This document shows, piece by piece, positions 15,257 through 58,807 of a stretch of 64,000 bases of DNA; positions within the stretch are counted from its first letter, which is position 1; every line of letters starts with the position of its first letter. Below the pieces are notes generated by a model. That model saw only the letters and a list, made by a program, of their open reading frames with translations. It did no database searches and had not been told where the DNA came from. Location of the stretch: positions 103,426-167,425 of the forward strand of contig JADJXV010000007.1 of assembly GCA_016720145.1 (NCBI GenBank), read 5' to 3'. The stretch comes from Ignavibacteria bacterium (GTDB lineage Bacteria > Bacteroidota > Ignavibacteria > Kapaibacteriales > UBA961). The position numbers and the translations under genes were made by a program.

Positions 15257-16008
15257 ATTATTAGACGCTTCTAATTCCTGCCGGACAGATTCGCGGATCT
15301 CGGTTTGTTTGTTTTGATAGTCAAGTTCGCGGTCGGCGATGACAAGCTCTGCGGCGCGCTTGTCTTTCTCTTCATTTTGGAAGGCAAGTTCTTTATTTGC
15401 AACGAGTAATTTAGCTGTGAGCTTCCCTTTTTCTTCATCCTGATACGCGAGCTCGATATTAGCAAGACCCAGCTCAGCGGCGCGCTTGCCTTTCTCTTCA
15501 TTTTGGAAGGCAAGTTCTTTATTAGCTACGACTAACTCAGCAGCACGCTTGCTTTTTTCTTCGTCTTGATACGCAAGCTCAATATTAGCAAGTCCCAGCT
15601 CAGCAGCGCGTTTGCCTTTTTCCTCGTCTTGATAGGCGAGTTCGATATTCGCAAGACCAAGCTCGGCGGCGCGCTTGCCTTTTTCCTCGTCCTGAAAAGC
15701 CAGCTCAATATTTGCGAGCCCAAGTTCAGCAGCTCGTTTGCCTTTTCCTCATCCTGAAACGCGAGTTCGATATTGGCTATACCAAGCTCCGTGGCTCTTT
15801 TTTCTTTTTCTCCATCCTGAAACTCAAGCTCTTTGTTGGCTATTCCGAGTTCGGCAGCACGCTTCCGCCGCTCAATGTTTTGAGTGTCAATTTCCTTGCG
15901 AACGCTAGCCAATTCTGCAATCAGTGTTTGATTTTCAGCTATTTGAATATCAAGTTCACTTTGAAGGCGGACTATATCATCGACAGATGGGTTAGTTTGG
16001 TATGCCAT
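15257..16008 (-). CDS. N-terminal extension of the hybrid kinase: coiled-coil plus about 10 tandem 21-aa repeats (ELGIANIELAYQDEEKGKRAA), separated from the kinase frame by a 1-nt homopolymer indel near 15745
   Basis: The ATG at 16008 opens MAYQTNPSVDDIVRLQSELDIQIAENQTLIAELASVRKEIDTQNIERRKRAAELGIANKELEFQ... Restoring one base in the T4 run at 15744-15747 (T5 in the other repeat copies) puts the reading in the kinase frame. That frame has no stop from about 15745 to 15256 and reads ...EEKGKRAAELGLANIELAYQDEEK...LVANKELAFQNEEKDKRAAELVIADRELDYQNKQTEIRESVRQELEASNNLVQLASQYS..., which continues into the kinase. It also contains no ATG, GTG or TTG before 15256. The DNA has a 63-bp tandem periodicity. 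Confidence 0.6.
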
Positions 16009-19619: not shown

Positions 19620-19756
19620 CTACAAACAGGACGCCCTGATGGGGCTACAAACATGATGCCTAGACAATTGCTACAAACAGGACGCCCCGATGGGGCTACA
19701 AATATGATGCCTAGACAATTGCTACAAACAGGACGCCCCGATGGGGCTACAAAAGC
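19620..19756. repeat. 51-bp tandem repeat x2.7, each unit containing a GC hairpin (gccccgatggggc)
   Basis: The unit ctacaaacaggacgccc[ct]gatggggctacaaa[ct]atgatgcctagacaattg repeats at 19620, 19671 and 19722. Confidence 0.85.
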
Positions 19757-19780
19757 TAAGTGCATCTTACGATTTTCAGA

Positions 19781-19889
19781 CTTTCGACTTTCGACTTTCG
19801 ACTTACTACTTACTACTTACTACTTTCGACTTACTACTTACACTTACTACTTACTACTTACTACTTACTACTTAAACACTTACTACTAA
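19781..19889. repeat. Composite heptamer microsatellite (TTTCGAC)n(TTACTAC)n immediately 3' of the porin stop codon
   Basis: ctttcgactttcgactttcgacttactacttactacttactactttcgacttactacttacacttactac(ttactac)4... A second copy of the same composite element lies at 25365-25460. Confidence 0.85.
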
Positions 19890-25364: not shown

Positions 25365-25460
25365 GACTTATTTACGACTTACTGCCTGATACTTGTACTT
25401 ACTTCTTAACGACTTACAATCTTTCGACTTACTACTTACTACTTACTACTTATTCCTTAC
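25365..25460. repeat. Second copy of the composite TTTCGAC/(TTACTAC)n microsatellite element, abutting the stop codon of 25457..26050
   Basis: ...ctttcgacttactacttactacttactacttattccttacttcc. Confidence 0.8.
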
Positions 25461-26050
25461 TTCCCCAGTCCGATTTGATTCATATATGCTTGATTGTCCC
25501 AGAAGAGATGTTCCTCTATGATCACACCATTTTTCCACATTGCTACTGTACACATTGGGATGGAGAATAATTTTCCGGTCGATTGGATCATTGTGCCTTT
25601 GCCGGTCGGCATTGGAGAGGAGAAGGTACCGCTCATGATACCTGTGACGCAGGTCATATTGCCCGAGCCGAATCTTACAGGGTGTAGCTGAATATTCGTA
25701 TTGGGCGCATAGACAAACATTTGCTTCAAGTCTGCTATATGTCTGTCAATTCCAACTGTTGAATGTCCGTCCGGCCAATTTACTTTCACATCTTTCGAAT
25801 GACTTTCGTGCAGACGAGCCCAATCTTGATTGCTAAAGACAGTAAAGTCTAATGTATCGAAGGTTGCGAGATTCTTGGCAATCTGTTGGTTGCCGGAAGT
25901 GAGATTGGTGATTTGATTGCGCAGGGAGTCAACTGATGCTTGTGAGTAGGTTTGTACGTCTTTATCATCCGAACAGCTTACAAGTGACATGACGCAACAC
26001 GTAAGAATCACAAGAGATAATAAATTTTTCAGGCGGTCTGTGTTTTTCAT
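25457..26050 (-). CDS. Lipoprotein with SnoaL-like/ester-cyclase fold
   Basis: Signal and lipobox (LVSCSDDK). The C-terminal ...GVIIEEHLFWDNQAYMNQIGL resembles predicted ester cyclases (SnoaL-like). Confidence 0.45.
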   Translation of the reverse strand: MKNTDRLKNLLSLVILTCCVMSLVSCSDDKDVQTYSQASVDSLRNQITNLTSGNQQIAKNLATFDTLDFTVFSNQDWARLHESHSKDVKVNWPDGHSTVGIDRHIADLKQMFVYAPNTNIQLHPVRFGSGNMTCVTGIMSGTFSSPMPTGKGTMIQSTGKLFSIPMCTVAMWKNGVIIEEHLFWDNQAYMNQIGLGK

Positions 26051-32042: not shown

Positions 32043-32762
32043 ATTGGGTACGCAAGTGTGCCTAAATGCAGTAGTGCAGGTGATTATTTAACACAAAGCC
32101 ACAATGGTAAGCCACAAAGTTCACAATAAGATAGGTGTATTTGTAGTGTTCTTTGTGGAATAACTTTGTGCCTTAGTGTTAAAAACTGATTTTCAATACA
32201 GAGAAGTTGAGGCGTTAAGATATCTTTGCTGATTTTGAGTAAAATGCTAAATAACAAGTAGATACATCAATCTTGCAAACGCTTCATCTGAAAGTATTTA
32301 CAATTAGTTGTACTCTAACATACACCTCAATCTGGGAATTGAGTGCAGCCTAAATGCAGTAGTGCAGGTGATTAATTAACACAAAGGCACAATGGTAAGC
32401 CACAAAGTTCACAATAAGATAGGTGTATTAGTAGTGTGCTTTGTGGAATAACTTTGAGTCTTTGTGTTAAAAACTGATTTTCAATACAGAGAAGTTGAGG
32501 CGTTAAGATATCTTTGCTGATTTTGAGTAAAATGCTAAATAACAAGTAGAGACATCAATCTTGCAAACGCTTCATCTGAAAGTATTTACAATTAGTTGTA
32601 CTCTAACATACACCTCAATCTGGGAATTGAGTGCAGCCTATATGCAGTAGTGCAGGTGATTATTTAACACAAAGCCACAAAGGTAAGCCACAAAGTTCAC
32701 AATAAGATAGGTGTATTAGTAGTGTGCTTTGTGGAATAACTTTGAGTCTTTGTGTTAAAAAA
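32043..32762. repeat. 288-bp tandem repeat x2.5, non-coding; each unit contains an imperfect hairpin of about 100 nt (ttaacacaaag...ctttgtgttaa with inner ccacaaag...ctttgtgg) followed by a T-rich tract
   Basis: Unit starts at 32061, 32349 and 32637, with an exact 288-bp period and a few substitutions between copies. No ORF of 60 aa or more on either strand. Confidence 0.9.
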
Positions 32763-32867: not shown

Positions 32868-34487
32868 TTACCCTTCCTCGACCATCCCCGCCGGCAAACG
32901 CGGCTTCACCATCACGACCTCTTCACGTTCCATGACCACCGCTCCGGGATGAGCGCCTTTCGGCTTACGAACGTATTTTTTAAGTGTATAGGCGACAGGA
33001 GTATAGCTTGCATTCCGTGCATTGGAGTAATAAGCAGTAATTTCAGCGGCTTGCTCTATAACACGTTTCGGAGGATTTTTCCCGGTCACGCGTATCACCG
33101 CATGCGAACCGCTCACGCCGCGAGCATGAAGCCAGATGTCATTTTGTTTGGCGAATTTCATGGTCAATTCATCATTATTCGCCGCGCTTTTGCCGACATA
33201 AAGCACAAAGCCCTCTTCGAGCGAGAATTCACGGTATTTGGAGGCAATTGTCTGATCTTTCATAGTTTTACCGACGAGAGTTTGAATGGATTGTTCGAGT
33301 AATTCTATTTGATTTATATCAGTTGCACCGGCAAGTCTATCGAGGATTTCCTCCACTTTGGCGAGTCTATTTTTATAAGCCGGCAGGCGCATTGCCCGTA
33401 TTTTGGAGGAGTCAGCCGCAGCACGAGTTTTGGTATAATATTTCTCAGCATTTTCGACAAGTGTGAGACGAGGTTCAAGTGGGATTGTGAGTGTTTCATC
33501 TGTCCAAGATTGGAGCGTAATCGATTCACCGGCAAGCCGTTTACCATTTGGCTGAGCGAGCAGAAGTTCTGCCCAAAGCTTGTAATTCGCAGCACGCTCA
33601 TCTGATGTTGCATCATTTTCCATGAGCGCAATACTCGCCCGAAGCCGCTTAGCAATTCTACCAAGATTTGTAAGATGCTTACTACGCTCTTTCAGGAATT
33701 TTTCACTTCGACGAGTGAGGATTATCCGCCTCCTAACCGCCGCGCATATTGAAGTATGCTGAGACTCTATCTCATAAGTAATCAACGGGATAAGTGATAC
33801 AATCGCCGCTTTGTCATTCGTGAGAATGTAGAATTTCCCGGTAGCTATACATTCATTCTTGAGTTGATTAGATTCATTGAGAAGGGTATGAATTTGCGTG
33901 TCGCTCAGAGATGAAACGAAGTCAGTCGGTGAAAGTGGAACTCGATTACATATTTCCCGGGCGTAAATTTTCCCAAGAAAAACATCAGATTGAACGAGCG
34001 CTGTTAGAATATCTGTATTCGGAGGAACATTATGAATATCAACAGCTTGCACAGCCGAACGTGCTTCAATCGACAACTTGTTGTCTAATCTGGTCTTAAA
34101 AGAATCGAGAATCACTCCCGAAGAATCAGTGAGTAGTACATTCCCTTGAGCGCCACCAAAAAGGGTAAAGTGAATCTGGTGTGAACTACAATCGATTGTC
34201 AAAATTCTATCCGTCGGATGCAGCCGCACTTCGCTCACCAGCACACCGACAGAATTTGGAAAAATCGTCGTGGAATTCCTCCTCGCCCGCCCAAATTCAG
34301 GGCGGAGATAGACGGCGCCAAGCTTACCGTCCAGCGAACATTCCACATAAAAGTCCTCACCACCACGTTCGAATGCCAGAATCAACGTGTTTTTTTCCTG
34401 TGTAAAGCACTCGATGAGCATGGCACCGGCGAGCACAGTATTCATCTCGCGGGCTATATGCTGTAATGTGTAATAATGACGGAGCAT
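32868..34487 (-). CDS. NFACT-family protein (RqcH / fibronectin-binding protein A-like; ribosome quality control homologue) with C-terminal NFACT-R/DUF814
   Basis: N-terminal NFACT-N (MLRHYYTLQHIAREMNTVLAGAMLIECFTQEKNTLIL...), a central coiled coil, and a C-terminal DUF814 (...GFVLYVGKSAANNDELTMKFAKQNDIWLHARGVSGSHAVIR...). Confidence 0.7.
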   Translation of the reverse strand: MLRHYYTLQHIAREMNTVLAGAMLIECFTQEKNTLILAFERGGEDFYVECSLDGKLGAVYLRPEFGRARRNSTTIFPNSVGVLVSEVRLHPTDRILTIDCSSHQIHFTLFGGAQGNVLLTDSSGVILDSFKTRLDNKLSIEARSAVQAVDIHNVPPNTDILTALVQSDVFLGKIYAREICNRVPLSPTDFVSSLSDTQIHTLLNESNQLKNECIATGKFYILTNDKAAIVSLIPLITYEIESQHTSICAAVRRRIILTRRSEKFLKERSKHLTNLGRIAKRLRASIALMENDATSDERAANYKLWAELLLAQPNGKRLAGESITLQSWTDETLTIPLEPRLTLVENAEKYYTKTRAAADSSKIRAMRLPAYKNRLAKVEEILDRLAGATDINQIELLEQSIQTLVGKTMKDQTIASKYREFSLEEGFVLYVGKSAANNDELTMKFAKQNDIWLHARGVSGSHAVIRVTGKNPPKRVIEQAAEITAYYSNARNASYTPVAYTLKKYVRKPKGAHPGAVVMEREEVVMVKPRLPAGMVEEG

Positions 34488-34556
34488 TCGGGAGGGAAAG
34501 AATATGATGAAGTGCGCACCTAACCAATTACAATCAAATGAGTTGGCGGCATGTAT

Positions 34557-34908
34557 GGAATCGACAGCATTCTTCCTGAATAGACTCCAGCTTTAGCTGG
34601 AGGATAGAGGAAGAAGAAAATCGACAGCATTCTTCCTGAATAGACTCCAGCTTTAGCCGGAGGATAAAGGAAGAAGGAATCGACAGCATTCTTCCTGAAT
34701 AGACTCCAGCTTTAGCTGGAGGTTAGAGGAAGAAGAAAATCGACAGCATTCTTCCTGAATAGACTCCAGCTTTAGCTGGAGGATAAAGGAAGAAGAAAAT
34801 CGACAGCATTCTTCCTGAATAATAGGATAGAGGAAGAAGAAAATCGACAGCATTCTTCCTGAATAGACTCCAGCTTTAGCTGGAGGGTAGAGGGAAGATG
34901 AAAATCGA
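34557..34908. repeat. Tandem array of six 61-63-bp repeats, each carrying the hairpin ctccagc-ttta-gctggag; located immediately 3' of the 1321-aa T9SS cargo gene
   Basis: The unit aatcgacagcattcttcctgaatagactccagctttagctggagg[ag]tagaggaagaagaaa starts at 34557, 34619, 34680, 34741, 34802 (hairpin deleted) and 34847. Confidence 0.9.
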
Positions 34909-34912
34909 TGTT

Positions 34913-37900
34913 TTATTTTTCAATAATCACCGGCAGCACACTCACGCTTGTACCAGTACGCATCACCACATAATACGCGCCTCCGGAAATACCGTTAAGT
35001 TCTAATTGTACTGAATGGTTACCGGAGAGTAGTGGTCCGTTGTAGATTTCCCGAGTCAGCATCCCGAGCGAGGAATACACAGCGAGCGAAGTATGGTCTT
35101 CGCTGACCGTTTCGAATTCTAATTCTAAAACTTCACTTGTCGAGGCACGTTGCAAAAGAGTCACATTCCCGCCAATACGGACGCGGCGGCTGTCTAAAGC
35201 GCAATCACCTGAGAGGGTAAACGTGCCGGCTGCGCCAAGAATAATGGTAGGTTTTTTATTCGCTGTCGGCAGCACAGAACGTGAAATATTTGGATTGCTG
35301 ACGGTGAGCGGTGTCGTGAGTTCGTCACCAAGAAGAGCTTCACATTCGAGCTCGGCGAATGCTCCTGGCTGAATAAATTGGGTCGCAGCCACACCATCAG
35401 GATGAGAGACGGTAATCGTTGTTTGTCCGGGAGTTACGTCGGCATAGCTTGCCGTAAAACCTGTCTGCGCTGCGCCTACACGTACTGCGCGAGGCATTAA
35501 AAGTCGTGGATTGTAGGTCACGTCAATTGCAAAACGGAAGATTCTCGAAAGCTGTATATCGGTTGAAGATATCGTGAGCGGTAATGTCACTCGTTCACCC
35601 ACATTCGCAGTACCACTGCCGATTTGGATAGTCGCTGTGGTGGGAATGGTATCAGCCGGAGGTGGAGGAGCATTCACCTTGCCAAGTCCAAGTAGTGTAA
35701 TCACAGAATTTGTATCGCACGGTCGGTCTATGATAAATTTCATGAGTACGGAGTCTCGCGAGGCAGTTAGAGGAGCATACCGAATCGTCACATCCATTGT
35801 TTCATTGGTCTTGAGAATTGCTGGCAAAGTCGCCGTCATCGACACAACAGAGAATGGTGGCGTCACTCCATCTATACGTTTGATTTGCAAATCAGAAGTA
35901 CCCGTATTTCGTATCGTCACGACTTTGTCTGATGTCAAGCCGGAATCAATCGTTGCGAAGTCGGTCGGATTGGTATTTGCCGTAAATAATGTTGAAAGTC
36001 GGCGTCCGCGAACAGGAATTGCACGCTGTTCTCCGCATGGCTCAAATACCACAAAGACGGTATCTCGGAAGTCACCAATGGCAGACGGAGCGAACTGAAG
36101 TTCAATAATATCACCGTCTTTCACCGCATCGCCTTCTTTTAGCGAAGTAAAGGAAAACGGAGGATTTGCAATTATTTTAGATACTTTTTCCGCGCCTGTG
36201 GCACCTGTGATAGTGAGCCGCACCGTTTGCTTGAATTGAATTGCACTACAGTAGCTCATATCGCCAAAGTTCAGATTGCGTTCTTCACTGAATTTGAATG
36301 TCGTACCTTGTTTCGAACCCGATATTTTGAGTATCACCGTTGCGTTACATTTATCGGCAATTATCGGGATCGACAAAGCGGTAACTGCACCAAATGACTG
36401 GGGTTGGAAACGTACACGGAGTTGTGCTGTTTGCTTAGGCGGGATCGTCACAGGCAGTCCGATAAACACAACATTCGGGTCGGTGGGTTGGGTGGTAATC
36501 TTCAGAGTATCCGAACCAGGATTCGTGAGGGTAATCACCGTATCTCGTGGCGGGTCACATGCTTGTATGAGCGGGAAGGTAATATCGGTAATATCGGCGC
36601 TGAAGCTTGGTGTGACGACAATTCCCTGAAGGTTGGCAATTAATGAATCGGTGCAAACTCCGAATTTGTAATCAACAATTAGAATTGAAAAATACGAACC
36701 TGCACTAGGAGGATTGAACGTAATACCAATCATAGCAGAGTCACCCGGCTTGACAATCTTCGGCAAATTAATATTATTGAGTAGATTATATCCCGTTGAA
36801 TTACCGAGTCGTCTTCCCGTAATTTCAAGATCACTATTTCCTCTATTATATACCCAGATATTTGTATCACGACCGGTATTTTCACAAGAGAGTATTCTGC
36901 CAAAGTCAAATGATGTGACTCCAAGAACTACTTTCGTAACATCTTTCGATCCCTTGAGTTGAATTGTTTGTTTTACTCCGCAGGGCGAGGCGACAAACGT
37001 AGCTGTTCCTGAAGATGTACCGGATATTTGTGGCGTGAATTGAAAAGTTAAGGTCTGAGATTGACCCTTTTGGAGTGTAATTGGCAAGCTTGGCGAAACA
37101 TATCCAAATCCGGGAGTAGCTGATATATTATCAATGGTAATTGATTCATTGCTAGTATTGGTGAGGATAATCGGTTGTGTTGCACTTGACTGACAGTCAT
37201 TGAGCTTACCGAAGTCGATGTCAGGTTTATTGAATGAATACGTAACTACTCGTTGTGTAAGTGTGGTAATTTGAGAAGTATCAGCGCATCCGTCAGCATT
37301 TTTAACAATCACGCGATACGCGCCTGCCGATGATGCGCGGTGGATTTGCCCCGTTTGCGCGGTGATTGTCACACCGTCTTTGATCCATTCATAGCTTGTG
37401 GCAGGGTCTGAGGTGAGACTCACCGTGTCGCCTGAGCAGAGAAAGAGCGAACCTGCTGTAATCACAGCAGTTGGCTTAGCGAGAATAATTACTTCTTTTG
37501 GGTCAGACTCGGTCGTGCAATTGACAGCATTGGTGGCGCGGACACGGTATTGTCCTGCCGTGGAAGCGATGATAGAATTCGTTGTAGCACCGGGAATATC
37601 GGCACCATTTCGTGACCATTGGAAAGTAAGTCCGGCAGTTGTGGCCGTTGAGAGTGTCACATTTTTGCCGATGCAGAAGGATAAGGGTCCGGAGGCGGTA
37701 ATGTCGGGCTTGACAGGGGCAATTTTTACTGCAATTGCCGAGGCGTAGTTGGTTTCGTTGTAGGCGCGGCCACGACCATATTTCGTGTCTGTAGAAATCA
37801 CAGCATCTTCGAGATCATCTTTGGTATAACGGAATGCAAATACTCGATATTTATAATTCAGCCCACAAGTCATGGTAGGTATTGCATCATCGTACGTTGT

Positions 37901-38878
37901 AACTGTGGATGATAGATTAGCCAATACTCGCCAGTCGCCGATAGTTTCGCCTGGTGCATAGTTTTTGCCGTCTTGGGGTACTTTATTCGTATCTGATTGT
38001 GTTTCAAGGGCAAAGAGTACTAAATATCCTTGTATATTATCAGATTGGTTGGGGTCGGTCATGGCATTCCATGAGAGCTTTACGGTGTTCCCGCCTACGA
38101 CGGTCGTCGTAAGAGTAGGTGATGTCCATAGTGGCTGCCGAGTAGTACGCCAGAATTGACTGTTGAGAATATCATTGGCGGTAGCACCGAAGTTCGGAAA
38201 ACCTTTAGAAGCATTACTTGGAATCGGTGCACTTGCCAGTGTTTTTGTACCTGATCCCGAATAATCTGCAATTGTAGCACCGGGATAAACCCTGACTAAA
38301 TTTCCCGCTGAGATTGACGAAGGATGCTGGAGCTTGGGCTGCGGTAAATTATTATAATCATTACCGGTGTTTGACCCATGTGAGAGTGCATGAACATGTG
38401 TTCCTGCTTCATTGGTGATTTGAATAATATCTCTCGCTTGAGAAATACTCAACACACCTAATAATTTCCATTCTTGACCAATAATACCTAGAGAATCAAA
38501 CACGGACCAATCATTCGCTTCGACTTCTATATGTCCGTCTACATAAGATTTATTAACTATGTAGAGTGGGTTTTGCTGTAAACGGTGTTGAATGACTATC
38601 ACGGTACCAGCTCGTAAATTTCTCCACATAGGAACATCTTTGAAGCGAACACATCCATTCCAAGTATCAAAATTTGTTACATTATCCCTAAATGTATATC
38701 CAACAATTGTCAAATTATCCTTTACGACTAATATCTCTGTCCATTCACCATCGGGCACTCCGTTGAAATCGGAATATTCACTCACGACAATATCCTGCGC
38801 ACGCACCGAACTCGGCGCTACCATCACAGCCACACACAGACACATTAAAAACGTACAGAATTGTTTCATGGGGATCAC
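34913..38878 (-). CDS. Giant T9SS-secreted multidomain surface protein (N-terminal lamin-tail-like domain, FN3/Ig-like/PKD-like and choice-of-anchor-D-like repeats, C-terminal T9SS sorting domain)
   Basis: Signal peptide. The segment VVSEYSDFNGVPDGEWTEILVVKDNLTIVGYTFRDN is lamin-tail-domain-like. Ig-like repeats carry conserved Cys/Trp (SFCIGKNVTLS...FQWSRNGADIPGATTNS...YRVRATNAVNC). The C-terminus (...AYYVVMRTGTSVSVLPVIIEK) is a T9SS C-terminal domain. Confidence 0.8.
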   Translation of the reverse strand: MIPMKQFCTFLMCLCVAVMVAPSSVRAQDIVVSEYSDFNGVPDGEWTEILVVKDNLTIVGYTFRDNVTNFDTWNGCVRFKDVPMWRNLRAGTVIVIQHRLQQNPLYIVNKSYVDGHIEVEANDWSVFDSLGIIGQEWKLLGVLSISQARDIIQITNEAGTHVHALSHGSNTGNDYNNLPQPKLQHPSSISAGNLVRVYPGATIADYSGSGTKTLASAPIPSNASKGFPNFGATANDILNSQFWRTTRQPLWTSPTLTTTVVGGNTVKLSWNAMTDPNQSDNIQGYLVLFALETQSDTNKVPQDGKNYAPGETIGDWRVLANLSSTVTTYDDAIPTMTCGLNYKYRVFAFRYTKDDLEDAVISTDTKYGRGRAYNETNYASAIAVKIAPVKPDITASGPLSFCIGKNVTLSTATTAGLTFQWSRNGADIPGATTNSIIASTAGQYRVRATNAVNCTTESDPKEVIILAKPTAVITAGSLFLCSGDTVSLTSDPATSYEWIKDGVTITAQTGQIHRASSAGAYRVIVKNADGCADTSQITTLTQRVVTYSFNKPDIDFGKLNDCQSSATQPIILTNTSNESITIDNISATPGFGYVSPSLPITLQKGQSQTLTFQFTPQISGTSSGTATFVASPCGVKQTIQLKGSKDVTKVVLGVTSFDFGRILSCENTGRDTNIWVYNRGNSDLEITGRRLGNSTGYNLLNNINLPKIVKPGDSAMIGITFNPPSAGSYFSILIVDYKFGVCTDSLIANLQGIVVTPSFSADITDITFPLIQACDPPRDTVITLTNPGSDTLKITTQPTDPNVVFIGLPVTIPPKQTAQLRVRFQPQSFGAVTALSIPIIADKCNATVILKISGSKQGTTFKFSEERNLNFGDMSYCSAIQFKQTVRLTITGATGAEKVSKIIANPPFSFTSLKEGDAVKDGDIIELQFAPSAIGDFRDTVFVVFEPCGEQRAIPVRGRRLSTLFTANTNPTDFATIDSGLTSDKVVTIRNTGTSDLQIKRIDGVTPPFSVVSMTATLPAILKTNETMDVTIRYAPLTASRDSVLMKFIIDRPCDTNSVITLLGLGKVNAPPPPADTIPTTATIQIGSGTANVGERVTLPLTISSTDIQLSRIFRFAIDVTYNPRLLMPRAVRVGAAQTGFTASYADVTPGQTTITVSHPDGVAATQFIQPGAFAELECEALLGDELTTPLTVSNPNISRSVLPTANKKPTIILGAAGTFTLSGDCALDSRRVRIGGNVTLLQRASTSEVLELEFETVSEDHTSLAVYSSLGMLTREIYNGPLLSGNHSVQLELNGISGGAYYVVMRTGTSVSVLPVIIEK

Positions 38879-40130: not shown

Positions 40131-40594
40131 TAATTGAGGCGCGAAAATACGGATTATCTAGGAGAATATTCATGATATTGAAGAAGAAAATCGAGGTATA
40201 AAAAATTCTCTTTGTTGGTAGGAAAAAGATATGTTATTTTGCCGAAAGTTATGACAGTTAGTACAATAGTCGTCCATAAAACATACTTGCTTTACGTGTG
40301 ATTTTGTCGTCATAAATTCAGAGGACTCATCAAAAGCGTTGAAAAATTCAAGGAATTTCAAAATATTTCAAAAACAATTCTACAAGTGTGGTAAGGTTGT
40401 GTTGTCCTATTTTGTCCTACGGATTCGACGTGTGATTTGTTCACATACAAATTAAGAGTTTATTCTGTAACATTCAATTATTAGAAGAGTTAGTGAGTCG
40501 CCTCCTTCAAGCTTTCGGGTTAGAGTATAATCAAGAATTTAGATAGCAAAATATTAATTTTTATTCAAGCTTCATTATTATTAAAGGTAGTTTT

Positions 40595-43933: not shown

Positions 43934-43955
43934 TTTCACGAGTTGATTCAAATAG

Positions 43956-43993
43956 AAAGCCCTGCCTGATACTCAGGCAGGGCTTTTTGTTTG
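43956..43993 (+). terminator. Rho-independent terminator
   Basis: aaagccctgcctg-atactc-aggcagggctttttgtttgg. Confidence 0.8.
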
Positions 43994-46030: not shown

Positions 46031-46265
46031 ATGATTGGTGGTTCTGTTGCTTGCATTCCAAGCAATCGCTTGCGGGCACCCTTGCCGTCCAAGCAATCTG
46101 AAAAATGGCACGATGATACCGCTGATTTATTATGAGGAAAGATACTCTAAATCGTTAACTAGTAGCATTGACATGGTGTTCGCATCAAACTATAAGTGGA
46201 TTACTAGCTCTATAGGAGTGACCGGTTTGTAACAACGAAGTTCAATAGTATGCCCTTCGTGCCGT

Positions 46266-46332
46266 AGGTGTGACCTGTTTTTTTCCTACTATATTGCGCA
46301 ATAAACAGGTCGCACCTACGGCGCTACAATGG
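46266..46332. repeat. Hairpin with 20-bp arms (gccgtaggtgtgacctgttt / aaacaggtcgcacctacggc). One arm recurs as the last 5'-exon nucleotides abutting the group II intron at 48335-48365
   Basis: The hairpin is an inverted repeat. Its right arm matches 48344-48365 (aaacaggtcgcccctacagggc) as a direct repeat. Confidence 0.7.
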
Positions 46333-46399
46333 TTCTTGTGGGTATATTTGGTCGAGTAGAGAGCTAACCCACAGTCTTTAGATTCCACCGTAGTTCCGT

Positions 46400-48334
46400 G
46401 TCCGCATTTCTGCTTTTGTGCCTTAGGATGTGTATTTCTTGGATGTGCATTGCTCCCCCTCACAGAACCGTGCATGAGGATTTCCCTCACACGGCTCCTC
46501 AATTGTATTCCGCACTCAGTGCTTGTAAAAGCTTACGTATATCTTTGGTTCCGGAAGTGGATACTTCGATACATACTGCTTAAAACTCTCCCAAGTGTAG
46601 CTCTTCTTCTGACTACGACGGTTGAGCCACTTGTAGAGAAGTTTCTTTACTCGGTCTTTGTAATTCCATAATGATTTGCTGTTTTCACTTACACCATAAT
46701 AGTGATAGTGACCACGTACCATTTGGGATATACTTTCCCAAAGTTCTTGCAGCGTATAGGTATTCTTGTGTTCCTTCAGGAAGATGCTCACCTTACGGAT
46801 GCCAAGGCGGAAGCGGGACTTACTTGTCCGCCTACATACCTTGAATTTGCCTGCTCGGGTTTTACCGCAGTAATGGGTAAACCCAAGAAAGTCAAACGTG
46901 CCCGGATGTTTGTTCTCGTCGCTTGTGTCCGTATTACGACCAAATTTTACTACCGATGTCTTGGTTTCCGATAATTCAAGCTTGAACTTCGCAAGCCGTA
47001 ATCGCAAAGCTTCCAATATCAATGTGCAGTCCGATTCTCGTTCTACAAGTATGATAAAGTCGTTCTGCATACCGTACTATCGATGCATAGCCTTGAAGCT
47101 CTTTCTTCAATCCTTTCTCGAACCAAATGTCAAGCACATAATGAAGGTATATGTTTGCTAAGATTGGGCTAATGATGCCGCCTTGGGGCGTTCCCTTGTC
47201 GCTCGCTCTAAAGCTACCTTCATCCATGATTCCTGCTTTCAGAAATCTGATAATCAGTCGAATAAATTTCTTGTCTTTTATCCGATGTTCCAGAAACTGT
47301 ACTAACCAATCATGGTTAACATTGTCGAAAAACGATTTAATATCTGCATCGATAATATAGTTTACGCGCTTGAGGGTTATCTCTTGAAGTACCTGCTTCA
47401 ACGCATCGTGACAACCCATCTTTTCTCTAAAGCCATAGGATGAATCAATAAAACTTGGGTCGAATACTGCCGTTAGTATCGAGGATATTCCTTTCCTGGA
47501 CTATCTTGTCCTCTGTCGAGGGAATGCCCAATGCGCGTTCCTCCTCGTTCTTTCGGTATTTCCTTCTTACGCACGGCTTGCGGACGATACGACATGCTTT
47601 TCATCCGTTCTACCAATCCACTAAGATTCGCTTCAAGCGATTCTCCGTATTCTTCTACACTCACTCCGTCTATGCCAAGTGCCTTCTTACGGGGAAGTTC
47701 GGCATAGCACGTTCTAAAGTACTCCTCGTTCAGCAAGCTTGCCAATGAGCCAAACTTGTATTTGGGAGAGTCCTTCGAGACCTTGCTTAGTTGTATAAGT
47801 TTCGTTGCCGTATCTGATTGTGTTCTATGAGCCATATACGTTTCCTTTATACAATACATACAATTGTCAGCCCCTTCGCGCTACACCAGAATTGAATGCT
47901 TCTGCATGCATACCTCTGCTTTCGCAGAGCTTGACGCTACTATGGGCTAATCCGACTTCCATTATACCGTTACGCATTCTACCCTTTTCGGATTTGGTTG
48001 CGCTTATGCCAAATGGCAAGTATAGTGGATATCCCAAGTTCCTGATATATCCGTTTGATATCATACTGCGGACTTAGACCCCGATGATGACTACATGCTC
48101 AAGCCATACGAACATGTTGTTATTGCATTCCTGTTTGTAGAGACAGTCTGCCATCATAACCTGACCTATTTCGGGGCTCAATACCTTCACTTGCGTTGCG
48201 GTCTGATATCTCCCTCGTCGTAGCTTCACTGGGCTTGTTACCTCACACAGCGTACGATTGCGGTAGCGGGTGGGTGGCTCCCTTCCCGCGAAGGATTTGC
48301 ACCTTCTGAATATACCAAGCTTCGCTTGGCGCAC
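46400..48334 (-). mobile_element. Bacterial group II intron (about 1.9 kb) with a frameshifted intron-encoded reverse transcriptase/maturase; 3' boundary approximate
   Basis: The minus strand begins GTGCGCC at 48334. The reverse-transcriptase/maturase ORF is split into three pieces on the minus strand: 47859..47473 (RT0/1: ...LNEEYFRTCYAELPRKKALGIDGVSVEEYGESLEANLSGLVERMKSMSYRPQAVRKKEIPKERGGTR), 47419..46976 (RT2-5: GCHDALKQV...IDADIKSFFDNVNH...GTPQGGIISPILANIYL...YA) and 47070..46516 (DDFIILVE...maturase X: FLGFTHY...RGHYHYYGV). Domain V (GAGCCGTGTGAGGGAAATCCTCATGCACGGTTC) lies on the minus strand at about 46461-46493. Confidence 0.8.
46516..47859 (-). pseudogene. Group II intron reverse transcriptase/maturase (intron-encoded protein) disrupted by at least two frameshifts (near 47529 and near 47060)
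   Basis: Three consecutive ORFs in different frames together cover RT domains 0-7 and the X domain. The YADD motif is split between ORFs (…SIVRYA | DDFIILVE…). Confidence 0.7.
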
Positions 48335-51871: not shown

Positions 51872-51960
51872 CAAAAACTGAAATTACCGTAAGTTATCAT
51901 TGCAAGATATCATTGTAAGTTATCATTGCAAGTTAGCGTTGTAAGTTATCATTGGATAAA
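51872..51960 (+). promoter_or_regulatory. Conserved upstream element AAACTGAAATTACCGTAAGTTATCATTG followed by five tandem 13-14-bp repeats (GTTATCATTG[CT]AA)
   Basis: ggcaaaaactgaaattaccgtaagttatcattgcaa-gatatcattgtaa-gttatcattgcaa-gttagcgttgtaa-gttatcattgg. A single-copy homologue (gggcagaaactgaaattactgtaagttaccattg) lies at 63775-63808, upstream of the next paralogue. Confidence 0.4.
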
Positions 51961-54900
51961 TTGTTAAGTCATATAACTATTTCAGCTCTTTTTTTCGAGA
52001 GGAGTTTCATGCGCTTTCTACTTCTTGTATTTTTTTTATCAGCAATTCAATGGGTCTCAGCCTCCGAAACCCCTCCACAACTGCGCAATTCAACGCCAAC
52101 ATTTACCGCCAATCGCGGGCAAATCATCAGCACCGATAATCTGCCTGTACCTGATATTCAATTTACCGCAGGGCAGTCCGGTAGCGTTCAGGCATTTATT
52201 ACTCCAACATGCGTGAGCTATGTATTTCCAAAAATTGAACTTAAACCCAAGTCAAATCTTCAAAATCTCACCAAAGAATTCCCCAAACGTCTTGATACGA
52301 TGCAAGCAATTATCACCGAACTCTACAGAATGGATATGGAGTTTATTGGTGCTAATCCTAATGCGCATATTTCGGGCACCGAACAAGCAAGCGACTATAC
52401 AAATTATTACTTAGCACATTGTCCTCAAGGAATTACCCATGTACCTTCCTTTGCTAAGCTCATTGTAAAGGACATCTATCCACAGATCGATGCAGTCTGG
52501 AAAACAACCGAACGAGGACTAAAATATGAGTTTATTGTACGCCCCGGCGGTGATTACCGACAGATTAAAATGCGCTATACCGGCGCTGATATTACGCAGA
52601 ATTCAGGACTTATCACCGCTACCACACCACTTGGAAGTATTCGGGATGAATCGCCGGTGTCATTTCAGAATGAAAATAAAATACCTACTCAATTTCATAA
52701 AAACAAAGATAGTTATGGCTTTACTGTCGCAGAATATGACCATAGTCAGTCAATTGTCATCGACCCGATGGTCGTCTGGGCGACGTATCAAAAAATTGGA
52801 CCGGATAACGATCCTTTAGTTTTGTTTACCGGACAAGGTCTTCAGGGAATGCGGCTTGATGCCAATGGTAATATTGTTATTGTTGGTGGTGTGAGTTCCA
52901 ATAATTTTCCTGCATCAACTGGAGCTTACAAAACCACATACACCCCCAGCGAAGCCCAAGGTGCGGGTCGTGATTGCTACCTTGCAAAATTCGATAATAA
53001 CGGTACTCGGCTCTGGGGTACGTATTATGGCGGAACCGGATATGAGTCGTCGAAGTCATTATATCTTCCAACCAATATTCTAACTATTGATGGAAACAAC
53101 GATATAGTATTTGTATCTTCCCAATATGTAGGACCATCCCAAGTTGTTAAATTTTCAGGCAATGGAGCGATCATTTGGACCTCGAATTATGGTACAGGCG
53201 AAGCATGGTCGGTCACCACCGATCCATCGAATAATGTGATTGTTGTTGGCTGGACACATTCGACTAATTTTCCTACATCTGGTTCTGTTTTTCAACCAAC
53301 CAATTCAAACTCTCAGGGTGTCGCTATTGTCACCAAATTTAATTCTTCCGGGAGTCGCCTTTGGGCTACGTACTTTGGTAATAATGTAGCAAGCGCTGAA
53401 TATACGTTTAATTATTTCAGTGGTGTAACAACTGATAATTCAGGTAATATATATACAGTCGGCGAAGCTTGGGGGAATGGCTTTCCGACGACAACCGGCA
53501 CATTTCAACCGGTTAATGATACCAATTTTTATAAAATTACCGTAGCCAGCTTGGACCCCATCGGACAGCGTAGATGGGCTACTTTTCATGGATGTGGAAT
53601 TGCCAATGATATAATTTGTGATAATAATAATCTCTATGTAGTAGGCACTACTCAAAGTAATACGCTCTTCGATGTGACCGTTGGCACCTATATTATAAAT
53701 GGTACAAGTGATGTCTGTATTTTTTCACTTGATAATACTACCGGCAACCGTAATAGCAGCTCATGGTCTCGTCTTTTCGGAGGAACAGATTTTCCAAGCG
53801 ATGTTTGGAAGTACGGTGTCGTTGATCACGGTCAAAGCATCGCTTTTGGTCCTGATAATGATATATGGGTTGGCGGTATAGCGGGGAATTCGAGTAATTT
53901 TCCTATAATCAATGTAGCGACCAATCCACCGTGGACGTATTCTATCCAACAAGGATTTAAAGGCGGTACGTCCGACGGATTCTTTGCTCAATTCAATAAA
54001 GCAACCGGTGAAGCTAAATATTCGACGCTTTTTGGATCGACCGCCAGTGATTATGGTGGCTTTGTCGTACCCTACGGCAGCTCTAGTTTGTTCTTCGGGA
54101 TTTGTTCAGGTGATGAAGGTTCGGGTACTTCTTTCCCTGTACCAACCAATCGGCGAATCGGTAATCCTGCCAGTGTCACCATCGCCAAAATCTGCACCTC
54201 CTACGGCACACTCACCGACGCAGGTTCGGATGCTGTGCTTTGTTCCGGTGATACTGTTCAAATAGGCGGTGTGCCTCTCACCGGAAGTTCGTATGTCTGG
54301 ACTTCTGCCGCTCCTGCTGACCTCTCCAGCTTGACTATTGCTAATCCTAAAGCATTCCCTACCAATACCACTGCTACTCAATACAAAGTAAAATACTTCC
54401 TCGAGCAAACGGACGCAAGCGGGTGCTATGGCAGAGATACCGTCGAACTAACTGTTCGCCCAAGTCCTGCCGTCACTCCTCTACCTCAAAACCCTCAATG
54501 CATCGGAAGCGTCGGTACCTACGCTTTAACCGGTATGTACACGCCACTCATTACCGACCGATTTACCTGGGAAGCAGGTGGCGGCACCATCGTCGGCAAT
54601 AATACCGAGCAAACAGCCAATATCCGATGGACTCGCATCGGGATAGACACCGTCTATCTGACCGTCACCAATAATCTGGGATGTGCCGCAAGGGTGAAAC
54701 TCCTCGTCGAAGTGACAGCGCTCCCCGTCGTCAACGCCGGCACTGATGCCGAAGTATGCGAAGGCAAAGGTATTCAACTTGCCGGTACTGCTTCCGGTGG
54801 TACCGGCACGCTCACCTACTCATGGGTGCCAACCGTCGGTATCTCCTCCAACACGATTCTCAATCCTATCGCTACGCCTAATCAACCTATTACCGATTAT

Positions 54901-56976
54901 ATTCTTACCGTTATCGATGCGCGAGGATGTGTGAATTATGATACTGTTCGTATCATCATGAACCCAAAACCAGTCGCCTTCGCCGGTGAAGACAAACAAA
55001 TCTGTATCGGCGAAAGCGCGCAACTATCTGCGTCAGTGACCAGCGGTATCGAACCGTATATGGCTACCTGGACTCCTACCACAGGACTCAGTAATCCGAA
55101 TATCTCCGATCCCGTCGCCAAGCCAACCGTCACTACTGACTACGCCTACTCCGTTACGGACGCCAAAGGATGCAAAAGCACCGATACCATACGCGTCGTC
55201 GTCTATCCTAAGCCGATTCTTTCCGCTATTCCACCTACTTTAGACTTCGGTAAATTAGACGGCTGTACGTCGTCCATCGAAAAAATAGACTCTATTGCCA
55301 ATACCGGTTCTGTTGAAGTGACCCTCACCGCTGCTACTCCCGATGATCCGTCCTTCAGTGTTAGTTCGGGATTCCCAATTAAGATTCCTGCAGGACAAAA
55401 AGCAGCGATTCGTATTCAGTATGCGCCTGTCTCTATCGGACAAAAAACAGGGAAAATCACCTTCGAAGGCACTCCGTGCGGGATTGTACTCCCCGTCAAT
55501 GTGATTGGCGAAAAACTCAATCTTGCTGTTAAAAATGTTCCGTCAGCCGTGGACTTCGGTCAAAGTATATCCTGCACCAATCGCTCCGCTGATACGCTGA
55601 TTACGATTACCAATACCGGCACCGATATTCTCACTCTCGTGCAACCTCTTATTCTACCGCCTTATACGACTTCTGCTACGTTCCCTATCACCATCAACGT
55701 CGGTGCTGATACCAAGATTCCGATTCGCTATGCGCCGATTGCTGATGGTAATTACGCGCAAACACTCCGCTTTCCCTTCTCGGCAGGCGCGTGTAAGGAT
55801 ACCATCAAAGTCGCTATGAATGGCGTGAGTGTTTCACACTCTGTAACGGCCAACCCTACACCGCTCCAATTCCCGGCTTTATCCGGTTGCGAATCGTTCC
55901 GCGATACGACGATAGTTCTTGAAAATACTAGTGTTGTGGATGTGAGAATTGACTCGGCTAGTGGCGGTGGGATGTTCAAAGTAACGGCGCCTGCCCTGCC
56001 GTTTACCCTCAAAGCAGGTGAAAAACGGGATGTGACGATACGGTTCGAACCGACCATCACCGGCGCAATTCAAAATGATCTGCAGTTCGTCTATAGCCCA
56101 TGCAGCAAACGTGTCACCATGCAATTCTCCGGCAATAAACAAGGTGCGAGCTTTGCTGTAGCTGACACACTCGATGCCGGTGAAATTATCGCTTGTGCCA
56201 AGCAATCGGCTACCGTCCAACTCACCATCGAAAATACGAGCAGTGGTGGGGCAAGTGGCGGAGTGACCGTCGTTACGCCCGGCGCGTCCATTACGACAAC
56301 TCTCAAAAATGGTGAAACCCTTCCGAATGGAACACCACAGAAATACGACGTGACCATCACACCACTTACCGACGGTACCTTCCTCGACTCCATGATGATT
56401 GTCTTTAATCCATGCGGTATTACCAAGATGGTCTATGTCAAGGGAAAACGTACCAATGTTGCGTTCAAAGCAGATATTGCAACGATCGATTTTGGGAAAA
56501 TTCCATCCGGAATGAATAAACCGCTTCCCGCGACTTTTACCAATACCGGTACGACGGCATTGACCGTGTCGAGTGTGCCGAATCTGACACTTCCATTCTC
56601 CATTCTCTCCATCACTCCACCACTACCTGCAATTCTCCAACCTAACGATAAATTGACCGTTACGATTCAATACACCGGTGTGACAGGTATTCAAGCAAGT
56701 AAACTATTTGCTGTGGCTACTTTGCCATGTATTGCTTCCGACAGCATCGCGCTTTCGGGTGAAGGCGAAGTAAGTGCATTGCCATCGTTTGCTTCTACTA
56801 AATTCCTGCAAACAGACAGTATTTGTATTGGTAAAGACACGCTCCTCTCTGTTCGTTTGGCGAATAATGGCGGTGTGAATTTACAGGTACAGCAAGCGCT
56901 TGCGACGGGTTCGGCGGACTTTACCGTGCTTGGTTTTGCGCCGCGATCGCTCGCTTCGGGGACAATATGGATGTGA
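51952..56976 (+). CDS. Giant T9SS-secreted surface protein (N-terminal FTANRGQ module, SBBP-like repeats, many Ig-like/choice-of-anchor-D-like domains). The C-terminal part continues in 56967..57782 after a frameshift
   Basis: The probable true start is the ATG at 52009 (MRFLLLVFFLSAIQWVSA). This gene ends ...LGFAPRSLASGTIWM*, where the paralogue reads ...LGFVPQTLASGNSMDVQVRYTPTSIG. That places a 1-nt indel near 56958-56970. Confidence 0.8.
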   Translation: MDKLLSHITISALFFERSFMRFLLLVFFLSAIQWVSASETPPQLRNSTPTFTANRGQIISTDNLPVPDIQFTAGQSGSVQAFITPTCVSYVFPKIELKPKSNLQNLTKEFPKRLDTMQAIITELYRMDMEFIGANPNAHISGTEQASDYTNYYLAHCPQGITHVPSFAKLIVKDIYPQIDAVWKTTERGLKYEFIVRPGGDYRQIKMRYTGADITQNSGLITATTPLGSIRDESPVSFQNENKIPTQFHKNKDSYGFTVAEYDHSQSIVIDPMVVWATYQKIGPDNDPLVLFTGQGLQGMRLDANGNIVIVGGVSSNNFPASTGAYKTTYTPSEAQGAGRDCYLAKFDNNGTRLWGTYYGGTGYESSKSLYLPTNILTIDGNNDIVFVSSQYVGPSQVVKFSGNGAIIWTSNYGTGEAWSVTTDPSNNVIVVGWTHSTNFPTSGSVFQPTNSNSQGVAIVTKFNSSGSRLWATYFGNNVASAEYTFNYFSGVTTDNSGNIYTVGEAWGNGFPTTTGTFQPVNDTNFYKITVASLDPIGQRRWATFHGCGIANDIICDNNNLYVVGTTQSNTLFDVTVGTYIINGTSDVCIFSLDNTTGNRNSSSWSRLFGGTDFPSDVWKYGVVDHGQSIAFGPDNDIWVGGIAGNSSNFPIINVATNPPWTYSIQQGFKGGTSDGFFAQFNKATGEAKYSTLFGSTASDYGGFVVPYGSSSLFFGICSGDEGSGTSFPVPTNRRIGNPASVTIAKICTSYGTLTDAGSDAVLCSGDTVQIGGVPLTGSSYVWTSAAPADLSSLTIANPKAFPTNTTATQYKVKYFLEQTDASGCYGRDTVELTVRPSPAVTPLPQNPQCIGSVGTYALTGMYTPLITDRFTWEAGGGTIVGNNTEQTANIRWTRIGIDTVYLTVTNNLGCAARVKLLVEVTALPVVNAGTDAEVCEGKGIQLAGTASGGTGTLTYSWVPTVGISSNTILNPIATPNQPITDYILTVIDARGCVNYDTVRIIMNPKPVAFAGEDKQICIGESAQLSASVTSGIEPYMATWTPTTGLSNPNISDPVAKPTVTTDYAYSVTDAKGCKSTDTIRVVVYPKPILSAIPPTLDFGKLDGCTSSIEKIDSIANTGSVEVTLTAATPDDPSFSVSSGFPIKIPAGQKAAIRIQYAPVSIGQKTGKITFEGTPCGIVLPVNVIGEKLNLAVKNVPSAVDFGQSISCTNRSADTLITITNTGTDILTLVQPLILPPYTTSATFPITINVGADTKIPIRYAPIADGNYAQTLRFPFSAGACKDTIKVAMNGVSVSHSVTANPTPLQFPALSGCESFRDTTIVLENTSVVDVRIDSASGGGMFKVTAPALPFTLKAGEKRDVTIRFEPTITGAIQNDLQFVYSPCSKRVTMQFSGNKQGASFAVADTLDAGEIIACAKQSATVQLTIENTSSGGASGGVTVVTPGASITTTLKNGETLPNGTPQKYDVTITPLTDGTFLDSMMIVFNPCGITKMVYVKGKRTNVAFKADIATIDFGKIPSGMNKPLPATFTNTGTTALTVSSVPNLTLPFSILSITPPLPAILQPNDKLTVTIQYTGVTGIQASKLFAVATLPCIASDSIALSGEGEVSALPSFASTKFLQTDSICIGKDTLLSVRLANNGGVNLQVQQALATGSADFTVLGFAPRSLASGTIWM

Positions 56977-57782
56977 AAGTGCGTTATTCGCCCTCAGTTA
57001 TTGGTCTAGCAACCGGTAAAATTGTCTGGGTGACCGATCTTCTCCGTGACTCCACTGACCTCTCAGGACTCGGTAAAAGCTGTGGATTTGTACCAATTGA
57101 CACAGCTAAAACAACCATCAGCATACAAAATATCGAAGCGAATACCGGCGATAAGGTGCAAGTAACACTCAAGCTTACAAGTGAGAATGGACTTGTAAAA
57201 TCAGGCGCAACAAACTTCAAGGCAAAAGTCGGCTTCAACCGAACCATTCTCCATATCACCGACCCGGCGATTATTTGCAACAGTGGTACTAATGCAGACC
57301 GATGTGAAGTTGAAATTACCGGCACACACCAAAGCAGCAGTGATATTCTCGCTGTCACACCGGCCGAAGCCACACTTGGCAATGCAGAACGTACTAACTT
57401 AGAACTCCTCTCATTTGAATGGCTTAACGGAACGGGTGCCGTGAACGTATCACGCGTAAACGGCGAACTCATCCTCACCGATATTTGCCGTGAAGGCGGA
57501 GTACGACTCTATCAACCAACACAAATCGTGAGCTTGAGTATGGTGCCCAATCCTGCAAGCGGAAATGCTGAAATCGAATATACCCTTCGCGAGGAATCTG
57601 CGGTAAAGGTCTCGCTCGTTGATGTGTTAGGTCGTGAAGTGATGATTATTGACGAGGCGGTCAGAGGTGCGGGGACGTATAGAAAGTATGTCGAACTCTC
57701 GCTTGCCGGTGATGGGGTGTATTATCTCAGATTGCAAGCACCGAATGTGACGAAGACGGTGAGGGTGAGTCTGGTAAAGTGA
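56967..57782 (+). CDS. C-terminal portion (Ig-like domain plus T9SS sorting domain) of the preceding giant gene, in a different frame
   Basis: MDVKVRYSPSVIGLATGKIVWVTDLL...SLVDVLGREVMIIDEAVRGAGTYRKYVELSLAGDGVYYLRLQAPNVTKTVRVSLVK is about 95% identical to the C-terminus of 58808..63745. The second half is a T9SS C-terminal domain. Confidence 0.75.
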   Translation: MDVKVRYSPSVIGLATGKIVWVTDLLRDSTDLSGLGKSCGFVPIDTAKTTISIQNIEANTGDKVQVTLKLTSENGLVKSGATNFKAKVGFNRTILHITDPAIICNSGTNADRCEVEITGTHQSSSDILAVTPAEATLGNAERTNLELLSFEWLNGTGAVNVSRVNGELILTDICREGGVRLYQPTQIVSLSMVPNPASGNAEIEYTLREESAVKVSLVDVLGREVMIIDEAVRGAGTYRKYVELSLAGDGVYYLRLQAPNVTKTVRVSLVK

Positions 57783-58073: not shown

Positions 58074-58775
58074 TCATAAGTTCTTTTCAATAATAGCAAC
58101 TAAGCAATATGATATTATGGCACAATAAATTTGAATTTTAACAGCATTCTCACTATTGCCCCAAAAGGATTTAATTTTTAGATGCTGTTTAATCCATTTA
58201 AAAAATAGTTCAACTTGCCAACGATTTTTATAAAGTAGTGTAATTTGCTCAGCCGTAAGTTCCATATTATTAGACAAATATGAAAACGTTTTGTCACTTT
58301 CTTTATCATAATAAATAACTTGGCGAATTTCATTAGGATAATCTTTAGACGCATAAAACCCTGTTAGTGTTCCTACTTGATCGCTTATTACTCCTGTGTT
58401 TTCATTGATTTTATTGAGCCGATTACATTTGAATTTAAGGTTTTTTTTTGCTCGAACAACAAAATATGCTGAGTGGTTACAAATCTTATTAAGTCTTTTA
58501 AAATCAATATATCCACGATCAAAAACATAATAAGCACCATACTCATAAGGAATAACATCCATTGCATTCATATCATTGACAGAGGCTTCAGTTATATGAA
58601 TGAAAGCTGGTATTTGAGTACAAATGTCATAGAGTGTATGAATCTTGATCCCGGCTTTAAATTTGCGAAATTTTGCCCACCATGTCAGATGTAGTGCTAT
58701 CACTTTGGCTTCTTTGCAAGCATTGTTTTTGTGCCCTTCGACTTCTTTTTTCTTTAGTGGCACTAGTGAAACCAA
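58074..58775 (-). mobile_element. N-terminally truncated IS4/IS5-superfamily (DDE_Tnp_1) transposase remnant
   Basis: ...WAKFRKFKAGIKIHTLYD...YYVFDRGYIDFKRL...YKNRWQVELFFKWIKQHLKIK carries the second D and the E of the DDE triad and the YxxRWxxE signature. The first-D region is missing. The reading frame is closed by a TAG that overlaps the start of the adjacent giant gene. Confidence 0.7.
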
Positions 58776-58807
58776 TCTATCTTTTTTACTATTACAGAGT
58801 GTGTGCT

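Follow-up and report, generated by a model that had tools for sequence, protein, structure and literature searches.

Arrays of hairpin units at the 3' ends of genes or between co-directional genes occur as the BIMEs of E. coli (PMC12306157, PMC3733652), and an array with this placement is present in the DNA analysed here, a 64,000-nucleotide stretch (hereafter, the window) of a metagenome-assembled Ignavibacteria genome. The definition of REPs and BIMEs includes a GTAG or CGTC tag at the stem (PMC3733652). BIMEs are transcribed as parts of operons and are reported to influence the decay of mRNA, attenuation, and the termination of translation (PMC12306157, PMC3733652); REP stabilizers and BIME attenuation are treated in work that the former paper cites (PMC12306157). 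In addition, E. coli REPs located within 15 nt of a stop codon stall terminating ribosomes and down-regulate translation (PMC12306157). E. coli REPs are 20-40 nt long, occur in hundreds of dispersed copies, carry the GTAG/CGTC tag, alternate in orientation within BIMEs, and are linked to RAYTs (IS200-like tyrosine transposases), whereas the present array has a 60-nt unit, consists entirely of direct copies, carries no tag, and is known from one locus only.

Tandem repeats of the MIRU type have reportedly been described in Mycobacterium by Supply et al. The MIRU VNTRs resemble the array in being composed of 40-100 bp tandem units that lie between co-directional genes and expand and contract by slippage (PMC3635867), but they differ from it in number (about 40 loci per genome), in not being built on hairpins, and in the frequent presence of short ORFs that are coupled to the genes on either side. 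Pneumococcal BOX elements (boxA-boxB(n)-boxC) share with the array an intergenic location, a module (~45 nt) repeated in variable tandem number, and the ability to form stem-loops (PMC3049150). Unlike the array, for which neither terminal modules nor other copies were seen, BOX elements end in defined boxA and boxC modules and are dispersed in >100 copies. The sopC site of the F plasmid consists of 43-bp direct repeats, each containing a 7-bp inverted repeat, and is similar to the array in this geometry. It is located on a plasmid beside sopAB and is bound by SopB, whereas the array is chromosomal, lies among housekeeping genes, and has no partition genes.

Organization of the array and its flanking genes

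The array occupies positions 34557-34908 and consists of six head-to-tail hairpin units in tandem between two minus-strand genes. The upstream gene (34913-38878, minus strand) encodes a 1321-aa protein with Ig-like/choice-of-anchor-D repeats and a cohesin-like domain, and the downstream gene (32868-34487, minus strand) encodes a 539-aa NFACT/RqcH-like (DUF814) protein that shares 100% identity with MBK9248314.1 of an Ignavibacteria bacterium MAG. The initial annotation described the 1321-aa product as a T9SS cargo protein; its C-terminus matches Por_Secre_tail (type A sorting domain) at a sub-threshold level (14-15 bits, E about 0.03), so that this label is plausible but not established, and four other large proteins encoded in the window score 24-36 bits for the T9SS C-terminal domain. 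The C-terminal 200 aa of the 1321-aa protein, used as a query, returned no matches. The array begins 5 nt after the stop codon of this gene (TAA, 34915-34913) and ends 69 nt before the NFACT start codon (ATG at 34487), in agreement with the positions first given for it (5 and about 70 nt).

The presence of six tandem units, as originally described, was borne out by Tandem Repeats Finder (TRF) and by k-mer counts. TRF identified a 60-bp period (4.4 copies, 94% matches, score 484), which replaces the 62-bp unit length proposed earlier and is also the length obtained by unit phasing, and a 119-bp higher-order period (2.2 copies, 97%, score 500). The array contains six copies of an invariant 23-mer, ATTCAGGAAGAATGCTGTCGATT, and five of a 44-mer, with an expectation of 0 for each in shuffled sequences; the array is far beyond chance.

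Because both flanking genes are on the minus strand, this strand is the transcribed sense of the unit, and the consensus unit in this sense is CGATTTTCTTCTTCCTCTATCCTCCAGCTAAAGCTGGAGTCTATTCAGGAAGAATGCTGT. When phasing on the minus strand is set at CGATT, unit lengths of 61, 44, 60, 60, 59, and 60 nt are obtained; a partial CGATTCC follows the last unit, and the units are 95-100% identical to one another. Unit 1 (34847-34907, 61 nt), which adjoins the stop-codon side, is the most diverged and is distinguished by T9A, an extra C, and T20C. In unit 2 (34803-34846, 44 nt), the inner hairpin is missing, with a loss of 19 nt and a gain of ATT, and the outer 8-bp stem is kept. Unit 3 (34743-34802, 60 nt) carries C17T in the internal loop, in common with unit 5, and unit 4 (34683-34742, 60 nt) carries T20A in the same loop. 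Unit 5 (34624-34682, 59 nt) contains A26G and starts with CGATTCC, the same sequence as the 3' flank of the array, and unit 6 (34564-34623, 60 nt) is identical to the consensus. The partial seventh unit, CGATTCC (34557-34563, minus strand), constitutes a short direct repeat that bounds the array, and the non-repeated remainder of the spacer (34488-34556, minus strand) extends to the NFACT start. Six to eight differences distinguish the units, all of them within unit positions 6-26 (left arm, internal loop, and linker), and the right arm and linker (39 nt) are invariant in all six units, a pattern that could hint at constraint on this half of the unit or at recent ancestry.

The full unit is composed of a 46-nt two-tier hairpin and a 14-nt linker. 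The inner stem is 7 bp long (CTCCAGC/GCTGGAG, loop TAAA) and is enclosed, across a 5 x 7 internal loop, by an outer stem of 8 bp, TTCTTCCT/AGGAAGAA, which had previously been overlooked. The 7-bp stem was originally considered to be perfect in each unit; this holds for four units, but the stem of unit 5 contains an A>G change (G.U pair) and unit 2 has no inner hairpin. Similarly, the hairpin of unit 2 is indeed lost, but its deletion is not precise as had been stated, since 19 nt (stem-loop-stem plus 1 nt) were lost and 3 nt (ATT) were gained, giving a net change of -16 nt. The consensus unit has a predicted folding energy of -21.4 kcal/mol (z -3.5), and the full units, folded as minus-strand RNA, range from -18.7 to -21.4 kcal/mol (z about -3.2 to -3.6); unit 2 folds through the outer stem alone (-8.2 kcal/mol), and the consensus unit folded as DNA gives -10.7 kcal/mol. 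For the array and spacer as a whole, a z value of -10.5 was obtained.

The spacer in syntenic relatives and other repeats of the window

Two syntenic lineages were found, with about 75-84% nucleotide identity to the window; no conspecific genome was found. The syntenic relatives share a gene order of DnaG, a DUF7948 protein, an M42 peptidase, the large Ig-repeat protein, and NFACT, and distant NFACT homologues (about 60% amino acid identity) are preceded by other genes. The array is absent from every syntenic relative found (L001 and L022-L028). The spacer between the large gene and the NFACT gene exists in four states among these loci and the window, i.e. a 145-nt spacer with a GTAG-tagged REP doublet (L001 and L026-L028), a spacer in which the REP doublet is split by an insert of ~165 nt (L025:1-303), a spacer with an insert of ~2.5 kb that carries genes for an N6/N4 methyltransferase and an MjaI-like endonuclease (L022-L024; L022:5301-7849), and, in the window, the 60-nt array. 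The spacer is polymorphic even inside one cluster of proteins with 90% identity. Loose counterparts of the proximal ~45 nt of the non-repeated remainder (GTTAGGT to ATG) are present in the spacers of the relatives, and only the ~30 nt adjoining the NFACT ATG align with L001.

The placement of the array was initially regarded as functionally meaningful, a view that the relatives do not sustain, as all available syntenic relatives lack it. Because they carry unrelated inserts at the same place, its position reflects a variable, insertion-prone spacer rather than a conserved design, and its absence from the relatives argues against a conserved role.

The REP doublet of the L001 spacer belongs to a GTAG-tagged, REPIN-like family, cGTAGGGGCGAATTGCATTCGCCC-N17-GGGCGAATGCAATTCGCCCTAC, which was located at 560-622 and 1467-1485 in the window and at L001:10038-10105. 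The family is represented in the window by three arms at two sites (564-618 and 1467-1485) and is common to this genome and L001. The sequence TTCTAC|GGTCA of L022 corresponds to the empty site of the L001 doublet, and the contrast between the filled L001 site and the empty L022 site suggests that these REPs may have been mobile recently in Ignavibacteria. The doublet resembles the array in that it occupies the same spacer in L001 and forms a stable palindrome without a U-tract, but it differs in having an unrelated sequence, the GTAG tag, a dispersed distribution, and copies in more than one genome.

Two candidate sources of the array sequence were rejected. Derivation of the unit from the NFACT start region, with which it shares GAATGCT, gave alignment scores at the null level, and derivation of the private bases of unit 1 from the spacers of the relatives gave scores (17-20) that did not differ significantly from the null (about 14 +/- 2.5).

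The window contains other young intergenic tandem repeats, which are almost entirely missing from the syntenic 21.7 kb of L001. A tandem array at 19620-19753 (51 nt x 2.6) has a unit with a GTAG-CCCCATCGGGGC hairpin. Behind it come microsatellites with heptamer units, (AGTAAGT)n and (GTCGAAA)n, at 19766-19887; the same heptamer as in this tract recurs in another spacer at 25396-25461. A 288-bp unit rich in inverted CACAAAG/CTTTGTG sequences is repeated 2.4 times with 97% identity at 32060-32761, just downstream of the NFACT stop codon, where the syntenic relatives contain three genes (59, 134, and 588 aa); only a 78-nt piece of this unit matches L001, in the opposite orientation. Two more tandem repeats were noted in the window: at 51889-51954, a 13-nt unit, AAGTTATCATTGC, is repeated 4.9 times and abuts the start codon of a 1674-aa gene, and at 15343-15828, a 63-nt (21-codon) tandem repeat (7.7 copies, 73% identity) overlaps a 158-aa ORF (15532-16008) and passes its 3' end. 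This ORF showed no Pfam match.

Several further features were identified in the window. A group II intron (Rfam RF02005 and RF00029) is present at 46351-48299 on the minus strand; its RT ORF seems to be decayed, with a 184-aa maturase-domain fragment remaining (46516-47070), and a 23-bp hairpin lies just 3' of the intron (46261-46322). At 51952-57782 on the plus strand, the 1674-aa DUF7948/Ig-repeat ORF overlaps a 271-aa ORF (56967-57782) with a T9SS sorting domain, and the two look like parts of one gene, separated by a sequencing error or a frameshift. An IS4-like DDE transposase gene (58074-58775, minus strand) overlaps the predicted 5' end of a 1690-aa ORF (58673-63745), and therefore the start of this ORF has probably been called too far upstream.

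Proposed growth of the array and its possible effects on RNA

In our judgement, the array is most likely a young, lineage-specific orphan hairpin minisatellite that was amplified locally and is not a conserved regulatory device, a reading to which we attach moderate confidence. As in minisatellites or VNTRs, which are defined by head-to-tail units of 10-100 bp with high identity, its units are direct, short, and nearly identical, and it fits the broad class of intergenic minisatellites already known in bacteria, being loosely BIME/MIRU-like. Units 3+4 and 5+6 form a higher-order repeat of 119/120 bp with 97-98% identity. Units 3 and 5 have C17T in common. Moreover, the CGATTCC at the start of unit 5 recurs exactly in the 3' flank, immediately after unit 6, whereas the other units start with CGATTTTC. 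The 119-bp period and the start of unit 5 point to probable in-situ growth.

The array probably arose and expanded in this insertion-prone spacer by replication slippage or by unequal sister-strand exchange. The last expansion would have been the addition of a 119-bp dimer, through an unequal exchange between the CGATTC of the flank and the start of unit 3, with CGATT(C)C as the likely microhomology; a single exchange of this type would account for the 59-nt length of unit 5, its flank-like start, and the duplication of the dimer. The edge unit, unit 1, is the most diverged, as is usual for internally growing arrays.

The spacer between the 1321-aa gene and the NFACT gene is probably transcribed from the minus strand, because no canonical terminator separates the two genes. 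Canonical terminators with long stems and A/U tracts are present elsewhere in the window (39029-38998, 43949-43993, 18632-18594, and 1567-1533), whereas scans of both strands of the array detected no terminator-like site and no stem is followed by a U-tract (stem tails, UCUAUUCA and UGCUGUCG), the element that directly succeeds the G+C-rich stem of an intrinsic terminator; the earlier proposal of a multi-terminator is not supported. A transcribed spacer would form up to six hairpins co-transcriptionally, each with a folding energy of about -21 kcal/mol. By analogy with the REP/BIME clusters of E. coli, such a string of hairpins would impede 3'-to-5' exonucleases and could attenuate read-through, and its first stem could stall terminating ribosomes. 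Any such effect on RNA, if the analogy holds, is likely to be a by-product.

A different possibility is that the array is a selected intercistronic RNA element that shields the mRNA of the giant protein against 3' exonucleases, attenuates read-through into NFACT, or causes terminating ribosomes to stall at the upstream stop codon. The same orientation of the two genes without an intervening terminator and the stability of the unit hairpins are compatible with this possibility, as is the position of the first stem: the outer stem of unit 1 begins 14 nt after the stop codon, within the 15-nt distance at which E. coli REPs down-regulate translation (PMC12306157). The spacer of L001 also holds a large, though unrelated, palindrome. 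Furthermore, the sole stem substitution, A26G of unit 5, converts an A-U pair into a G.U pair on minus-strand RNA (-20.7 kcal/mol), whereas on the plus strand it creates an A.C mismatch (-19.2 versus -23.9 kcal/mol); that the change pairs only on the transcribed strand is a weak hint of possible selection at the RNA level. The 39-nt invariance in six of six units can be read in the same way, but it may simply reflect youth, given that the copies are 95-100% identical. No compensatory pairs were found among the units, although the six copies resemble one another too closely for a covariation test to be informative. Against this possibility, the inner hairpin has been lost from unit 2, and no syntenic relative carries the array, one allele of the spacer holding 2.5 kb of restriction-modification genes in its place. 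The initial suggestion of a multi-hairpin 3'UTR acting as a stability element or RNase barrier is therefore physically plausible, considering the co-directional genes and stable hairpins, but it is not backed by a conserved placement. We found no evidence of selection on the array and regard a selected RNA element as unlikely, though it is the alternative to be taken most seriously.

Uniqueness of the unit and the remaining alternatives

No further copy of the unit, whole or partial, was detected in the 64-kb window using mismatch-tolerant patterns, blastn-short, and nhmmer, and none was found in 28 fetched loci. The exact 23-mer is absent from collections of species-representative genomes and metagenomes, which do not contain the source genome itself. 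A degenerate two-stem pattern gave 17 scattered single matches in unrelated taxa in the genome collection and no match in viral contigs, and a four-arm pattern gave none in metagenomes. Likewise, blastn searches of plasmid and phage collections yielded no match, and Rfam 15 yielded none at the gathering score, with only noise in a lenient E-value scan (best E, 0.027).

Two partial resemblances were examined and set aside. An intergenic hairpin of Flavobacterium sp. DG2-3 (L006:6002-6039), TTCTTCCT-GTA-CCTCCAGCTAAAGCTGGAGG-CAATTCA with a TAAA loop, was not accepted as a homologue because most of the match was forced by the search pattern and unrelated hairpins surround it. A 14-nt exact match to the unit start, CGATTTTCTTCTTC, in the leader of the M42 peptidase gene (40180-40193, minus strand) was judged to be due to chance (blastn-short E, 0.019).

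These results bear on the possibility that the array was amplified locally from one copy of a hairpin element of mobile or dispersed type (REP/REPIN, MITE, or BOX-like) that has copies elsewhere in the genome. The spacer is a proven landing site, with the L001 doublet located exactly at the empty site of L022, and the REP family of the lineage is present in the window. The array at 19620-19753 is built of GTAG-tagged hairpins, and the genome therefore does form BIME-like clusters. The 60-nt array is itself an extragenic imperfect palindrome at a gene 3' end, as REPs and BIMEs are; the inner hairpin is flanked by CTAT/ATAG, one base from CTAC/GTAG, and the segment lost from unit 2 is essentially the hairpin alone. 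However, the many dispersed copies expected of REPs and BIMEs were not found, the unit being confined to this locus in the 64-kb window, where three arms at two sites represent the genuine REP family. The sequences next to the stem are CTATC/TCTAT (ATAG on the plus strand), with no GTAG or CGTC abutting it, and no RAYT/IS200-type gene was detected among the window ORFs scanned. Features of MITEs, i.e. terminal inverted repeats, a target-site duplication, and other copies, are also lacking in the window, where nothing but the direct repeat CGATT bounds the array. With no relative in the public collections searched, an origin from a dispersed element appears rather improbable, and on the evidence available, which covers 64 kb of the source genome, the array would not belong to a dispersed REP/MITE family.

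The initial annotation correctly separated the array from CRISPRs: the whole 60-nt unit repeats with 95-100% identity and without unique spacers, and no cas genes or Cas domains were found among the window ORFs scanned with Pfam.

The array could also act at the DNA level, as a series of six perfect 18-bp palindromes (CTCCAGC-N4-GCTGGAG) at a fixed spacing of 60 bp that recruits a putative dimeric protein in the manner of sopC, an operator, or iterons. The geometry is similar to that of sopC, and the palindrome is exact in four units. It is missing from one unit, though, and occurs nowhere else in the window; the 60-bp spacing is out of helical phase, and the relatives do not possess the array. 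The context is one of chromosomal housekeeping genes, with no parA/parB-type gene, the expected neighbour of a partition centromere, among the window ORFs scanned, and no replication initiator or regulator nearby. A protein-binding array is very improbable.

Likewise very improbable is an assembly artefact in which the copy number or the unit variants arose from a mis-assembled shorter repeat. In favour of it are the metagenomic assembly of the source genome, the difficulty of assembling tandem repeats, and the presence of several other near-identical tandem repeats in the window, but the distinct private variants of the units and their consistent higher-order pattern are not something that assemblers invent, and the contig is 279,923 bp long with intact flanking genes. 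A coding repeat, in which 60 nt (20 codons) would specify a peptide in repeated form or lengthen one of the flanking proteins, is suggested by the divisibility of 60 by 3, by two minus-strand frames that are open across the consensus unit, and by an ATG in each unit, but it is effectively refuted by the frame-breaking indels, as all frames are interrupted by unit lengths of 61, 44, and 59 nt and by a TAA in unit 4, which leave low-complexity ORFs of 28-66 aa in no consistent frame.

The orphan minisatellite reading has modest consequences: if it is right, the array matters little, being one more bacterial intergenic minisatellite and at most a marker for strain typing. We consider it quite improbable that the array is instead a newly born functional RNA module, i.e. 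a BIME-like string of hairpins formed de novo by tandem amplification and not by transposition, which tunes the output of the giant surface protein through ribosome stalling, with its first stem 14 nt after the stop codon, or an exonuclease block and insulates rqcH, the ribosome-rescue gene downstream. If that were true, the locus would present the origin of a structured intercistronic element caught in the act, and proof of selection on the array would mean that such an element can be born by tandem duplication without a transposase. On the minisatellite reading, the array would also exemplify spacers with hairpins at the ends of genes as hotspots of insertion and amplification.
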